The notes beneath the pieces are model-generated. The model saw nothing but the letters and a program-made list of their open reading frames with translations. It was not told where the DNA came from and searched no databases. A stretch of DNA of 64,000 nucleotides from Octopus vulgaris. Taxonomy: Eukaryota. Of this stretch, positions 932 to 63,544 are shown one piece after another. The DNA is taken from the NCBI GenBank assembly GCA_951406725.2, contig OX597829.1, positions 29,946,001 to 30,010,000 on the forward strand, read 5' to 3'. Position numbers and translations under genes: made by a program. Numbering within the stretch: position 1 is the first letter of the stretch; every line of letters starts with the position of its first letter.

Positions 932-2239
932 AGAAATTCTGTTGATCTGGTCAGCAGCTGCTTCAAATGCATAGTGGAAGACAATTTTTTTATAATATGG
1001 TTGTAGAAGCTGCAACTTATGGCACAATTTTTACATAAACAGATAATCTTTCCAATAGTTATTGTTCAGTATTGTGACAGATGTATTGAATTCAGGAAAA
1101 CCCTAGTGTGGAGGACAAGGTTTTAACTATGTATATGTAGAGCCTGTGTGGGATGAGGAATGTTTAATTTAGTTATGTAAGACTTCCATAAAGTGACGTT
1201 ATTAATCTATATTTCTTATATGAATCCAAACCTACATTTATCTAAAGGAAAAAAAGTCTTGTTTTAAAGGTTAGTTTAGTTAGAGGATCACAAAACTCTG
1301 GTTTCTTTCTAAAAAAAACAAAAAAAAAAAAAAACACTGTTGCTTCCAGGAAAATGTTCAGGCATTTTTTTTTATGTATGGCTTTTGTCTAAATGTGGCT
1401 GTACCTGTTAGTTTTGAAACATCATCTGTTGAGAAATGTCAATGTACCTAAAGAAATAATAGTTAAATTTCCCTCAAAAAAAAAAAAAAAGAGAGTGAGA
1501 GAGAACATTAGATAGCAAATGTATATACTTCCAAAAAGACTGGAATGTCTTTGATAATTGGTCAGTAGGTCAGTTCAGTTAAGGTTGAGCAAGCATTAGG
1601 CTACAATCTTGACTTGTTCCTTAAGTTAGTTATTAAGAAGAAATCCCACTATTGACAAAAATTAGTACAGTTCTCATTTACTCTGTTCAAACGATTAAAA
1701 GTCAAGTGAGTGGTTCATCTGTTAATTATAGGTTATTTAATAATTAGAGAGAGAGAGAAGTTGGCTGAGATCATAAAATTCTAGATTAGGCACAAGCAAC
1801 CATTTTTGAGAAATGAGCTGCATGAGACATTCAAGTTTATTGCACTACTAAAGAAATTCATGGTGATTTTTTTTTTTTTTTTTTTTTTTTTGCATTTCAT
1901 TCAGAAAGTCCTGTGAGCCACTGTTGACCCATGATTGTTCCACATTAAATGGTTCAAAGTATTTTGTCCTCCTAAGTTTTGGATTCAAGGCTTGATGTTA
2001 TTGATTGACTTTCAGTTCTCCCAGTCAAATTTGTGTCAGTATTTTATTGGTATCTGTTTATGTGACTGAATTGCACCTCATCCAGCAACTATTTATGAAG
2101 TAACAAAAATTATGGGAAATTATAAGCTTAAACCTTGCTGTTCATCATTCTGAAACTGATAAAAACAACAAATATCATTTCTCCCTCAAACATTGTTTGT
2201 CTCTGTAGACAAGGGGTTAAAAATAAACTGTTTATCTAA

Positions 2240-18388: not shown

Positions 18389-18979
18389 AAATAATTCATG
18401 TGCGTGCATGTAATTATAAAAATCTGTTTGTAACAGGTGACCATCATTATTGAATCTAAAGTTCTAAGTATGAGTAACATTTGTAAAGGGAAATGGCTAG
18501 GTCAGTGTCTGTGTTTATATCTGGAGTGAGAGAATACTCCATATATGAAGCATGTATATTTTATTAGCTGAAGCTTCTTGAATTGAAGCACTGAATTTTC
18601 ACATTACAGAATATTTAACTTCTGTATGTGTGTATGTATGCATAATACATGTAATTATATATGGAAAGTGTGTGTGTGTATATGTATTTGTTTGGTGAAT
18701 ATTTTGTATTTGCAAAGTGTCTGTATATTCTATTAGAGGTTCGTGCTTCTTGATTTCTAATTCTAATTTTCACATTACAGGTTATGTGTCTGTGTCTGTG
18801 TGTGTGTGTGTGGAACAGTCAGAACAAATTTAATTAAAAGGCAATTTATTTAATCTGCTTGAATGAATGTTTTTGTTTTTTAAATTTTTCTTATATCTTC
18901 TAATGGGACATTATACATTTATCAAAGTTTAACAATCCTGACATTGTTTTTAAACATTTTATTTTTCTGCTTTTATCAG

Positions 18980-18991
18980 ATATTTATTGAG
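18980..18991 (+). CDS. Candidate 12-nt microexon of Klc (a TAT TTA TTG ag, x-Y-L-L-R in phase 2)
   Basis: TTTTCTGCTTTTATCAG acceptor after about 50 nt free of AG, CTGAC branch-like motif near 18938, strong GAG|GTAAGC donor, frame-preserving length, and TGCATG at 19049-19054. Confidence 0.55.
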
Positions 18992-19062
18992 GTAAGCATC
19001 TTTTAGTAGAATAGGCTCTTTGCTACTAATTTCTTTATTAAATTATTTTGCATGGTACGTTT

Positions 19063-19098
<36 letters not shown>

Positions 19099-22000
19099 GT
19101 ATATATATATATATATCTTTTTTCAATTAATTCGTTATTGTAATTAATCTTTACTTTTCATTCTTTTTTTCAAAGTTCTGCTTGTTCAGATATAATTTTT
19201 GATTAAAAAAAACAAAACCTCTTTTAATAGAAAATCATATTTTGTTCAGTAATTTAAAAAATTTATTTCTGTCTTTAATATAATAGTCTGAACTTTTAAA
19301 ACTAAACTTGATTGATTGAAGTTAATCATCTTGTGTTCAAATTTATTTTGGCGTATTTGTGTGCATATTTGTGTATGAGTGCATTGGTTGTTTTCTATGT
19401 ATAAATAATGATTAAAATTTTGCTTATTCCTTTAATACTTTATTTCTTAAAGTAACATTTTTAGACTCTTTTCCCCCCTCTTCTTTTTAGTTTATTGGTT
19501 AAGATCCTTGTTTTTTGTAGTGTTTATTTTTATCTCTTCCTTGCATGTTTCTGAAGAACATCATTGCTAAATTTAATCTTCTAAGAATTTGTTGAGATAT
19601 GAATAAAATATTCTTTCATTAGAATTGTTTAATCTATTTTCCATTGCTTCCTCTATTTTTATTCTCTTTCAATTATTTTCCCAATTTGAAAAATAAAATC
19701 CTTCTAGAATAATGTGGAGGTAACCTGTGTAGCTAAGTGGGCACTGAAACAAAAGTGAGTTGGAACAGAGAGATCTGTTATTCTAGTATAGTTGCTTTGG
19801 TGTTAGCAGTTTGATAAATATCAAGATGTTTATGATAATAGCTCTGAAATGTGTAAAAACACCATTACATCCTTAGTCATAAATATTAGTAAAAACCATC
19901 ATATGACAATCTTCTGGGCCAAAGGTTTTAAGTGAAAAGAAACCCAGATTCTTGATGTGCTAATAATCTGAATGACTGTAAGAATATAACATTTTCCCAA
20001 ATGGCTTCAATGAATTTGTAAACATATTGGAGGCTTAAGAAGCATATTTAAAAATGCCTAATAATGTAGATTTCACACATTTCAGTTCATGATGTGAATA
20101 TGCCTGGTCTCTAAGTACATGGTAGCTCAAATCATAGCATAGGTTACTGACTTCCAATTGAGTATTGAAATACAATTTTCTCTTCCTCCACAGCACAGGT
20201 CTATATATAAATAATATAGATTTAAACATGCCAAAGTCTTGGAGGAAAAAAATCTTACTGCCTACATGTTTCTCTCTGTCACTGACAGTATCCATGAATT
20301 TACACAGGATCCTCTAGATTGTCTCTCAATCTGCCTGTTAGATATAAATTAAATTATCTTCAAACTACATCTTAAAAAAAAAAAGACATGTCATCTGAAA
20401 ATATGAGAAGCCATGGTTGGCTTACTTGATTAGAGTTGACATTATTATCACCCACAATCTGTTATAGAGCACTGAGTCTTCTAATGTTCCTTGCTCTTAA
20501 TATTTGCCCCACATTTGCATCTTCACAAAAAATTGAAAATACCCTTGATAACTGGTATGAAGTATCACGACTGATATTTGACACTTGTAAACAGCTTCAC
20601 AAAAAGTAAAACCTGAGGAATTTAAGATTCTCTGTTCTGTCTTGTATTTTACCATAAAATCTTCCAGTTTATTTACTTAAATAATTTACTCAGTCATCCA
20701 CCATATTTGATTGAGTAGTTCTCAATAACTTTGAAAGTTATATTTTGCTTTTGACATCAATAAATTCTTTTATTGGCATTAGAAACTTAACAAAGCTGCC
20801 TACAGACAGACACCTCTCATCATTAACCTGTTCATATTCAGAATACTCTGTCAAATGTAATGCTATTTATTCAGATTGTTTTGAATTAATTATGCATTAT
20901 CTCATAACTGAGATTTCTACAATGTGACAACTGAACTAAATAAGATGTTTTTTGACCAGTTTTCATCATATTCCATCTTTCTCCCTTACCCTGCTGTTAT
21001 GCTCGTGATGTCATGAGACAACCGCCTAAGTTAATGATGACTCGACAAGCTATACTATACACAAGCTCCATTCATATGCAGTATCACCATGTGCTGGCAT
21101 ATCTTCAGCTTGGTCCATAAAAATAAATAAATAACCTTTCCATAAACTAAAACCAACAGATGACAACACTACATCCCTTTACTTCGTTTACTTGTGAACA
21201 ATACAGCTAAAACCATCGTAAGTCCCTTATAAATAGTTTACCTGGCAGTCAGTCACTAGCACCCTCTCACAATGCCCTACATAACCAAGGCTGCTCTATA
21301 GTTACTAAGCCTTTCAAAATGTCATTTCTTCTATACATTAACATTCTAGGCCACACCCAAGAAGAGATATATGCTAAGCAAGTCTTTGCTTACTAACAGA
21401 CTCAATGAGATCTCTGACTCCTCCAACAAATTTTTCCTTGTCTTCACTTTACAACTAACTAGTATAATATTCCCAAATTTTCTGAACATTGTCAACTTTA
21501 TATTACTGTCGTCACTCCCTTCAGTATGGTATGCCATGCAATTTGCCCAATGTTTTGTTTTTTTCCCCCTGAGTCTCACATCTGTCTGGTATTTTATCTA
21601 TCTATGATTTCCCTCCATCTACTTGAAACAGTAACCCACAATTGAGCTGTCACCCATCACACCCCTCTCTTTCTTGCTCTACCAACTTCTACTACAATTA
21701 TTGCTTTTCTAAATATTATTGACTATTACACCTATACTTATTTCTCCAGTATACTATGTCTCTGGTATTATTCCTTATGACCCCTTTCTAGAACTGCTGG
21801 CAACAATAGTTACTCTTCCAGATATTGCTGTCATGATAGATTCCCTCTTAGTGTTATTTTCCTACAGTTACTCTAAAAAACTACCTGCTCTTATAGATAC
21901 TACTTTTTTTCCCCCAAACACATTTGTCTAGTATTTCCTCTTGGTATATGGCTTTCACCCTATTACGGTTTATAACAAATATTAATCTTGCTCACCCTTT

Positions 22001-36013: not shown

Positions 36014-36044
36014 ATGCCCTGTGTGCTAGTCAACTGTTTCTGCC

Positions 36045-36077
36045 ATGGTGGTTACCGAGTGGAGAACTCAGATCTAG
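36045..36077 (+). promoter_or_regulatory. uORF (MVVTEWRTQI*) in the Klc 5' leader
   Basis: GCCATGG context at 36042-36048 and TAG at 36075-36077; ends 32 nt before the MEVT ATG and is out of frame with it. Confidence 0.5.
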
Positions 36078-36109
36078 GAGAGATCCTGAGCACTACACTT
36101 CACTTGGCG

Positions 36110-36144
36110 ATGGAAGTTACACAAACAGTAAAATCATATCGAAT
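36110..36144 (+). CDS. Klc: Kinesin light chain, first coding exon (MEVTQTVKSYR-I), phase-2 end
   Basis: GCG-ATG-G start at 36110 and donor AT|GTAAGT at 36145. AT + A of the 44406 exon gives ATA (Ile) and the continuous read MEVTQTVKSYRIKKIEEIGKMTALSQ, matching the squid KLC N-terminus as I recall it. The region is locally CpG-enriched. Not in the ORF track. Confidence 0.88.
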
Positions 36145-37023: not shown

Positions 37024-40000
37024 AATAAAATTTATTTCATCATATAAGAATAATTTTATATTCTATTGAAGGTTTTATATTGCATATTACCAAGTATTTA
37101 TTGAGATATATCATCAGTTGACACTTCTGGTTTAGCTTCATTTACTCATCTTATTTGACATCTCTCTCTATCTTTCTCTCTCTCTTTCTCTTTCTCTTTT
37201 AAATATCACTGTACTCTACAGAAGCCATGTTGGATTTATTTTTAGGGTAATATAGCAGTTATTTTGTTTCACATTCACTGAACATACATTTTATACCTAG
37301 GATATTACAATTAATTTTGTGGTCACTAGATTTAGTTTGTTGCTTCAGTTGACACATTTACCCACCGACTGACACTCGCATACATACACACAAATATACA
37401 TATGAAGAAGGGAGAAAAATATTTCACTAAGCTACTACCCACTGCATTGTAATCTTTTTTCTTTTAATGATTAATTCCCATGATTACAAAAACTAAAAAT
37501 AATAATTTATCTTTGTCAGGTTATATATATATGTACTCTCATTTTTCCAATTATAAAAACATAATTAACAATTTGTGTCTTAATCACTCATAAGGTCATA
37601 ATGCTATTTTATACTTCAAAATGTTTTTCCAGTTAAAACTACCATAATTTTTTTTTTCGATTTCAAAATATCAGTTGTACTCTCATTTAATGAAAATAAT
37701 AAGATTTTACTTTATATTTCTATGCAGACAGTATATCCAAATTTCTAATGTCAATGTTCTAGCTGTTAAATTTTCCATAATTCAAGTGAAATATAAACAT
37801 GGCTGCCAATAAATAAGATTCTCTCTGTTTCTCTTACTAGATTTACTATTGTATATAATAGGCTTATGGTTTCATTTGCTACTCAGGATTATTTCAATTT
37901 TTTTTTTTTTTTTGCTTTCAATCTCTTTTCCACTCATCTGATTTCATTTATTTTTTTTTTCATTAGTACCTGCTAATAGTACCTTGATTGATTCATCTAA
38001 CAATTGCTCTCTTCTATTAGCCTATTCAATTATTTTTTTCCTTCTTTTTATCATTTACTTCAATTAATTGAATCTTTAGGTTTCTTTATTTCTTGTATGC
38101 ATTTGTATGTGGGTCGGGAGGTTTGCTTGCCAGCATCTTAATAAATTAGATATTAACAAAGTGAAAGTGAATAACTATATAAATGTGTATGGACAATTTC
38201 TTTCATTGATTTCTTGTGGGATGTTGCTTTACCCAGTTTCAAACAGATCTTTATGAATACACTATTCTATTCACAAAAACCCACTGTCATAAATGTATAG
38301 AATCCCTATAGAAAATTCTTTTAAATGCTATTTACAGTTTAGCTGTTTAAGTTATCTTGTAACATTTCTAGAGAAATCAAAACCTTAGTTTCCTTGTCAT
38401 ACAAATATTAAATGCTTCCCTTTATCTGGACTTGTATATGGTGGTATGAAGCATAATCAATTTTTAAGTGAAGCCATTGGTTATATATTAGTTAATAGTT
38501 TGCTTTTCATCTTCTTTCTGGTCATTTCACAATCTCTTCTTTGTATTTTACCAATGTTTCGGACAAGGTCATCAATATTCAAAATGGCAACTAGCTCTTG
38601 TTATTATTATTATTATTATTGTTAGGATAATTGAGCTAAATTGATGTCAACATTGAATAGCCAGATAAAATGATTTAAAGTATTAAGCTTGGTGTCCCAT
38701 TAAAACTGTCATTACTTTTTTATTTTATTTTTTTACTTCTGGTTAAAATTTTTTCGAGAGGTTAGTATTTGTATTAAATGAGTTATTGACTGTGCAGCTT
38801 TAAGAATTCCCTATTTTCATTTATAAAACCATCTTGTTAAAGGTCTCTGCATTATATCCTCTCACTTATTAATTAGTATGTTTATTAATGACTGTTTATT
38901 AATATGATGCGAGATTGTCCTGTCAGTTGCCAATTTATTCAAAAGTTTGCTTTGTAGCTTCTGTTATCAAATAGCTGCTTGCTCGTAGCAAGTGTTATTA
39001 TTCTGTTTGACATTTATTGAGACTGAAGCAATTATTGCTACTCAGTGCAGCTAGTGCTATTGACTAGTCTCAGGGGCGATGTTTCTATGCAAAGTGTACT
39101 TTTACTTTTACTTTCATTTTGGCTGTAATGGTAAACATCAATTCTACATTGACTTACATGTGGTATACTGAATGTATGTCTATAATGTTAAAGATGAAGT
39201 TAGAAATGTTTGATATATAGTCAGTCTGTCACGACAGAATATTCTTAGTTCTATGAATTTTTAATCAAGTTGTTTTTAGTTGATATGCTGATGTAAACCT
39301 GTTTGGCTTTTATTGACCTAGGTGCATAGTTTAGTCACACGATTGTCAAGTAGATCTGAAGTATTAAGAACCTGTTCTCTGTAGAGATAGTTCTTCTTTT
39401 GTGTATGTGTGTGTTATGTCTTATACTGGCAGAATAATGAACTGTAAATCTTTATTTCTAATTTTATTTTTTTCTAATCATGTGACTAAGTAACTGATTA
39501 TAATTATTTCTGTTTCCTTGATTCCTAGGCATGATTATTGACTCATTGTTTTAGTAACACACAATCACAAATTATTAAAGGGTATATACATCAGTGGTTT
39601 TATAAATTCATAATGTACCAGTAAGTATTGCTAGCTTTTTTTTTTAAAGTTATCAAGGAAATGAGCATGGTTCACTAATTAAATTAATAGAAATAAGACT
39701 GTTATATTAGTGTTTAAATTGTATATGAGTGAGAAGACTGGAATTTTTTTATTTGTGTATTACAATTTTTTTACATTTGTGTATTATTATTTTTACACGA
39801 TAGGCTTCAGTTGCTAAGTTTTTTAAGTTACTAAAATTACTAAGAATATATTATTTAAATTGATTGTTTTAAATTGTGCATGTGTGTGCCTGTGCATACA
39901 TACATTATACATTGTTAACAATTGTTACTTTTAATCAATACTGTATTATCAATCATATCAAGATAAGATAATGAAATTGTCAACCATAAAAAAGTCATGG

Positions 40001-44405: not shown

Positions 44406-44649
44406 AAAGAAAATTGAAGAGATTGGCAAGATGACTGCCTTATCTCAGGAAGATATTATCTCCAACACCAGGACAGTTATTCAGGGATTAGAAACTCTGA
44501 AAAATGAACATAATCAAATACTCTATAGTCTCCTAAATTCTATGAAGACCATCAAGAAGGAGAATGGGGACACTAACTTGGTGGAAGAGAAAACAAATAT
44601 TCTCAAGAAATCTGTAGATTCTATTGAACTGGGGCTTGGAGAAGCTCAG
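44406..44649 (+). CDS. Klc: Kinesin light chain exon (KKIEEIGKMTALSQEDIISNTRTVIQGLETLKNEH...ELGLGEAQ), start of the heptad-repeat region
   Basis: Polypyrimidine tract plus TGCAG acceptor at 44401-44405; donor CAG|GTACGA at 44650. Carries the KLC hallmark sequences IQGLE.LKNEH and ELGLGEAQ. Internal in-frame ATG at 44431. Confidence 0.97.
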
Positions 44650-52264: not shown

Positions 52265-52573
<309 letters not shown>

Positions 52574-56223: not shown

Positions 56224-57339
56224 TAAATCAATTTAAGAAAATTGTTTAAATTATGTATCAAATTTAAAGTTTATTAAGATTTAAAAACAGTTGTTCACAA
56301 ATTTTTACTTAATGTTTCATAATTAGAAATATTAAGCTACTTTTAGATTCATTCAAACTTAAGTTTTATGTCTGAATTTGGAATACTCTGTAAATTTTCA
56401 AAGACAATTTCATAATCTTTTAAAATTCTGTGATGTTGAAATTTGTATTACCTTTTTTGTTATTGAAATTTGTGATTATCTTTTGACATTACATTTTCCT
56501 TCCCTTGCTTCCAGATTTTCTGCATCTTACACCATTTTTTTGTACCTTCATTACTTTATTCAAAAAAAAATTTTTTTTTTCATTTTAACATTTTTTGAGA
56601 GATGTTTAAAACTTTTCCTCCTTCACCAACCTTCATGTGGTATTTACAAATTCCTTTCTGTTGATCTCTAAAACAAAAAGTATTTTAAACAAATATAGTT
56701 GAATAGAGTGCTATTTCAAGAGGCTTACAACCAATGAAACAGTTAATTTTTTTCCTATAAATTTCTTTAATAACAGCACAGAAGAAATCAGACTTCTCTT
56801 TTATCTTCTCTTTATATCTTTACATATTAAAATATAATTTATATGTTTCGGTTGTTTTAAATTTAACTTTTTCCCTTCTTTCCTTGAATTACAAAAAACC
56901 CTTTACCCAACTGCTTTACATCCAAAGCTTACCAACCCTGTATTTAGCTTTGATATAAATATATTTTAAATTGTTTGACCCCTCTGATTCTGTTTGGTTT
57001 TTACAGGGATTTGGGATCAATAAAACTAGCCATGTCATGTCTCCATTCTTCTCTGGAAATCAGAGAGAAAGCACTTGGGAAGGATGACCCAACTGTGAGT
57101 TTTAGGAATGTAAAATTAACAATAGTTAAAATTTAACTTATTGTATTAAACATGGAAAAGAATTTTTTTTTGTTAAAAATTATTGCCCTTATAAAAAATT
57201 ACATTTACTGTCGAGGTTATATTAGGATAGAAATATTTCTTCTTTTTTAAATATGAAATTTAACCAAATAAAAAAAACATGTTGCATCTGTCACAATCCA
57301 TATCATATATTTGTAGTTTTGATATTATCACATTTGATT

Positions 57340-63295: not shown

Positions 63296-63544
<249 letters not shown>

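Follow-up and report, generated by a model that had tools for sequence, protein, structure and literature searches.

The stretch of Octopus vulgaris DNA analysed here (64,000 nucleotides, referred to below as the window) carries part of the gene for kinesin light chain (Klc), which extends ~40 kb past the window end. The common exon of this gene matches Octopus kinesin light chain with 100% identity (Table 1). Several annotated Octopus leaders join this same KKIEEIGK exon in phase 2, and its acceptor, to which the preliminary description had also assigned phase 2, indeed reads x-KKIEEIGKM. Three alternative first exons (MPCVL/MEVT, MLDLFLG and MYQ) lie between the 12-nt exon that is the subject of this work and the common exon, and two further 5' exons, E1 and E2, are found before the window. 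The ATG of E1 precedes that of the MEVT form by 49 kb, so that the start of Klc, which had been predicted to lie more than 17 kb upstream of the MEVT exon, is at least 49 kb away from it. The same E1/E2 arrangement is present in the abalone isoforms P0156 and P0158. In octopus, at least five coding 5' exons contribute to the KLC leader, in addition to the 12-nt microexon.

Table 1. Features of the Klc 5' region; positions are those of the window unless a genomic coordinate is given
Feature	Position	Strand	Remarks
Upstream exon E1	ATG at G000:C16:29933031		before the window
Upstream exon E2, 42 nt	G000:C16:29936172-29936213		9.8 kb before the window
3' splice region of the Klc microexon	18928..18979	+	AG-free zone plus AG; CTGAC, U-rich tract, UGC
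Klc 12-nt microexon	18980..18991	+	symmetric phase-2 cassette; adds YLLR after the 42-nt exon E2
5' splice site of the Klc microexon, GTAAGC	18992..18997	+	consensus-like
Rbfox-type hexamer TGCATG	19049..19054	+	57 nt downstream of the microexon (position +58)
Alternative first exon MPCVL/MEVT, coding part	36014..36144	+	second ATG at 36110
Alternative first exon MLDLFLG, coding part	37227..37246	+	matches O. bimaculoides isoform X9
Alternative first exon MYQ, coding part	39613..39620	+	matches O. bimaculoides X11 and O. sinensis X19
Common Klc exon (KKIEEIGKMTALSQ to EAQ)	44406..44649	+	phase-2 acceptor common to all N-terminal variants found

Other variable parts of the gene were also seen. 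E2 (L002:1485-1526) is symmetric and itself skippable (P0133 joins E1 straight to the common exon); a UGC stands at -15, the AG-free zone measures 42 nt, and an ATG in strong context lies within the exon. Two small alternative exons, L010:6154-6189 (36 nt) and L010:9808-9846 (~39 nt), are used either singly or not at all in the isoforms mapped, and the former, in which an AG-free zone of 49 nt is combined with a UGC at -10, is a second candidate for regulation through the eMIC domain (see below). Another 36-nt alternative exon (L012:2404-2439) belongs to the C-terminal tail of Klc. The end of exon 52265 has two donors 3 nt apart (52493-52497), and at this point P0134 and P0131 lack one residue. 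Within the open frame at 56954-57136 (+), the segment from RDLGSIKLAM to DDPTV is a diverged version of the TPR exon 63436-63523, and these two probably form an either-or pair. Besides, an uninterrupted KLC-like frame of 486 codons with 46% identity is located at G000:C10:25204550-25205929 (+) and may represent a retrocopy or a second gene of this kind.

The microexon, with its 12 nt, falls within the microexon range of 3-27 nt, and it is flanked by canonical splice dinucleotides (CAG upstream, GTAAGC downstream). The AG-free zone before it spans 50 nt, the preceding AG ending at 18927. It contains a branch-point-like CTGAC (matching CURAY) at 18938-18942, i.e., at position -42, and, between this branch point and the AG, a TGC at 18968-18970 (position -12). 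A second TGCATG is found further downstream at 19542. All these signals (the 50-nt AG-free zone, CTGAC, UGC, CAG/GTAAGC and both TGCATG copies, at 19049 and 19542) are located where the preliminary description had put them. UCUC or CUCU, in turn, does not occur within 60 nt upstream of the microexon, and the UC-rich element is absent. A DNA search of the 2.8-Gb genome found the 201-nt stretch with the microexon to be single-copy.

The assignment of this exon to Klc comes from a protein of the sister species. Isoform X15 of O. sinensis Klc (RefSeq XP_036367545.1 = P0123) starts with MENKELEERYLLRKKIEEIGK and contains YLLR at this junction. In-silico splicing of E2, the 12-mer and the common exon of O. 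vulgaris gave exactly the first 60 residues of XP_036367545.1, and all its remaining segments map exactly to this O. vulgaris locus as well. The proposed phase-2 reading of YLLR into KKIEE is thereby borne out, (R)YLL(R) being what the X15 model has. If E2 is spliced to the common exon without the 12-mer, isoform P0001 results. The introns flanking the microexon comprise 28,766 and 25,414 nt, and in the undivided intron of 54,191 nt it is the only AG-12-GT site coding for YLL. Other origins of these residues were rejected: an extension of E2 at its donor runs into a stop, an extension of the common exon at its acceptor reads LFCR, and two further YLL-like 12-mers in the intron are devoid of splice dinucleotides.

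Skipping of the microexon is represented by the isoforms P0001, P0004, P0128, P0131 and P0132 (O. vulgaris), P0138 (Sepia), P0148 and P0149. Both included (P0123) and skipped (P0001, P0004, P0138) products are thus annotated, as gene models from related species rather than as reads. The evidence for inclusion is one predicted gene model of the automatic annotation of O. sinensis; RefSeq isoforms rest on transcript alignments. Among 23 Octopus proteins examined (the main Octopus cluster, with 60 members, was covered by 15 of them), six use the E2 donor and one of these, O. sinensis X15, contains the microexon. E1 and the microexon occur together in none of the isoforms mapped. Taken together, these models make it very probable that the microexon is a real cassette exon. 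As the MPCVL/MEVT, MLDLFLG and MYQ first exons lie downstream of the microexon, transcripts starting there are unable to include it, and it would be carried only by transcripts from the distal start(s). Nor, for the same reason, can any junction link the microexon to the MEVT exon, an alternative first exon further downstream. The likeness between YLLR and the S-Y-R-I of the MEVT form, to which attention had been drawn earlier, proved superficial, the Tyr standing four residues before KK in the one and three in the other.

How often would a site of this kind appear by chance? We searched the window for YAG-[3-27 nt]-GTRAG candidates with an AG-free zone of at least 30 nt, a pyrimidine content of at least 0.7, a UGC, a length divisible by three and a TGCATG within 200 nt. 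One of 80 candidates on the + strand, the Klc microexon, and none of 95 on the - strand passed all filters. Local shuffling produced such a site in 1 of 100 cases, a rate that flatters the microexon, since the filters were picked after the candidate was known. TGCATG is present 32 times on the + strand of the window, and random positions have one within 65 nt in 3% and within 200 nt in 10% of cases; because of this frequency, the copy at 19542 carries no weight. An 8-nt microexon-like site lies in the same intron at 1905-1912 (+), with a 49-nt AG-free zone, a UGC and a GTGAGC donor. Its use would lead to a frame shift and an early stop, and CURAY and UGCAUG are missing there; shuffles yield 0.49 such sites per window, so that chance is its likely origin.

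As an internal control, 20 other Klc acceptors were scored for four features of the microexon. An AG-free zone of at least 45 nt was present at 13 of them, UGC at five and CURAY at three, and UGCAUG followed within 200 nt downstream at three of the 20 exons. Even the common acceptor combines UGC and CURAY with an AG-free zone of 68 nt, and one of the 20 (the constitutive exon 76197) unites a long AG-free zone, UGC and UGCAUG. Single motifs are therefore weak evidence, since in this AT-rich gene each of them is frequent at acceptors of the ordinary kind. All four features together, however, were found solely at the microexon among the 21 Klc acceptors. Similarly, it alone had the full motif set among the UGC-bearing small-exon candidates in 154 kb (three on the + and two on the - strand). 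This combination is suggestive of regulation by eMIC.

Exons dependent on eMIC, a domain of Srrm234 (SRRM3/4), are characterized by a long AG exclusion zone, a UGC near the 3' splice site, a UC-rich tract and a strong branch point (PMC8797185). A UGC is found in 74-79% of eMIC targets and is not a strict requirement (10.1101/2024.09.17.613571), and the UCUC/CUCU element is enriched at such exons without being obligatory (PMC8797185; 10.1101/2024.09.17.613571). The O. vulgaris genome encodes an eMIC exon (L006:1492-1637), whose SRRM_C match (PF15230) at G000:C25:37317492-37317626 scored 33.2 bits, above the cut-off of 27. A cwf21 match is located at G000:C25:35789896, 1.5 Mb upstream of the eMIC exon on the same strand; if both belong to one gene, Srrm234 would be very long here. 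The Rbfox-family profile PF12414 had zero matches in the genome and likewise zero in the controls, so that this negative result is uninformative about Rbfox.

On balance, we favour the view that the Klc microexon is an optional in-frame exon that is likely left out by default and whose inclusion is likely to occur mainly in neurons, mediated by the eMIC of Srrm234. The distant branch point and the tiny size of the exon would result in its poor default recognition; eMIC acting at the UGC would promote early spliceosome assembly, and Rbfox bound to the downstream UGCAUG may perhaps assist inclusion. The motifs make such neural, eMIC-driven inclusion somewhat probable. Alternatively, the microexon may be a real cassette exon that is not a neural eMIC target, being included in another tissue (e.g., in muscle via Rbfox), across tissues in general, or at low levels without regulation. 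This is a possibility to be taken seriously, even if we regard it as rather doubtful: ordinary acceptors of this gene often have one or another of the motifs, the UCUC element is absent upstream, and, among the matches listed, one of the six Octopus isoforms with the E2 donor shows inclusion, as against no isoform from other genera. Against it, the short neural exons of bilaterians are described as being driven mainly by eMIC (PMC8797185), and the motifs co-occur nowhere else in the Klc locus. The length of the microexon, a multiple of three, moreover preserves the frame. It appears very improbable that the microexon is an artefact of annotation, or a pseudo-exon that O. vulgaris does not use: there is a single predicted model from a single species and, among the matches listed, none of the five E2-using O. 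vulgaris isoforms includes it, but a 12-nt exon inside a 54-kb intron is unlikely to be annotated without junction reads, the O. vulgaris genome has its splice signals undamaged and close to consensus, and the YLL-coding match is unique in the intron.

The distribution of the insert in other animals is an argument against neural eMIC-driven inclusion, the reading that we prefer. A YLLR-like insert was present in one of 270 anchor-bearing KLC-like proteins (out of 296 in all) and in none of the 269 others. In the decapod cluster, of which 15 of 18 proteins were examined, E2 was found in three, none of them (0/3) with the microexon. Neither junction-centred protein searches nor the clusters of other molluscs and a nemertean had a YLLR insert among the matches listed. 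This negative result is weak, as up to 15 members per cluster were covered and short matches resembled genomic read-throughs. An insert in a single protein would fit the rapid turnover reported for neural exons (10.64898/2026.09.05.749416), or under-annotation.

The YLLR insert corresponds to residues 10-13 of XP_036367545.1. The solved KLC1 chain 9pmb_C starts at QEDII, and the insert, which precedes QEDII by 14-17 residues, is thus probably outside the kinesin assembly interface. Given this distance from the start of the heavy-chain-binding helix at QEDII, the insert would fine-tune the leader and would not alter kinesin assembly. It increases the net charge of the leader by 1, and L12 is in a heptad d position relative to I16/I19. 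A gain of an amphipathic helix was unsupported, the hydrophobic moment being 0.25 with and 0.26 without the insert. Isoforms starting at the downstream methionine of MTALSQ would leave YLLR untranslated.

Inclusion of the microexon creates the sequence EERYLL, a pattern absent from the eight other leaders tested. Acidic dileucine motifs are defined as [DE]xxxL[LI]. This pattern is matched once more in the same protein (residue 281), which makes it a weak motif. It is a speculation, and a most improbable one, that a neuron-specific octopus KLC might bind the clathrin adaptors AP-1/2/3 directly via its N-terminus. If true, a microexon switch would couple kinesin-1 to a vesicle coat at a place other than the cargo sites known in the TPR and C-terminal regions.

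The exon is already contained in a public gene model, XP_036367545.1, whose N-terminus including YLLR is identical, and is therefore not new at the gene-model level; this automatic model comes without tissue or regulatory information. In its architecture, the Klc microexon resembles the neural microexons controlled by the eMIC of Srrm234 (SRRM3/4), which are 3-27 nt long, keep the frame and possess a long AG-free zone, a distant CURAY and a UGC (PMC8797185; 10.1101/2024.09.17.613571). Its consensus-like donor is as in mammalian eMIC exons, whereas fly eMIC exons have weak donors. Unlike eMIC microexons, it is not accompanied by UCUC, and an orthologous exon was not found outside Octopus among the matches listed. 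We thus regard it as a candidate member of the bilaterian eMIC microexons in which one enriched feature is absent.

Isoform variation of KLC is known from squid as well (P46825-2/-3/-4), where none of five records has the YLLR insert. A 51-nt neural exon of mouse Klc1 (MmuEX0025678; table S2 of PMC8797185) is a case of neural KLC variation, and an 18-nt neural microexon of fly syd/JIP3 (10.64898/2026.09.05.749416) affects a KLC adaptor; both are different exons. Apart from the mouse Klc1 exon, one supplementary table of PMC8797185 has no Klc or Octopus entry. We found no paper on the Klc microexon, and the literature found on a cephalopod neural microexon programme was confined to a broad comparative study; the supplements of 10.64898/2026.09.05.749416, which include O. 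bimaculoides tissues, may list the event.

The Klc microexon is an ordinary instance of a well-known class and involves no new mechanism. Its importance is modest: as a candidate cephalopod target of eMIC it is clean and open to testing. The protein concerned is part of the motor complex for fast axonal transport, and the microexon would extend the recurrent gain of neural exons in the kinesin-1/JIP3 module.
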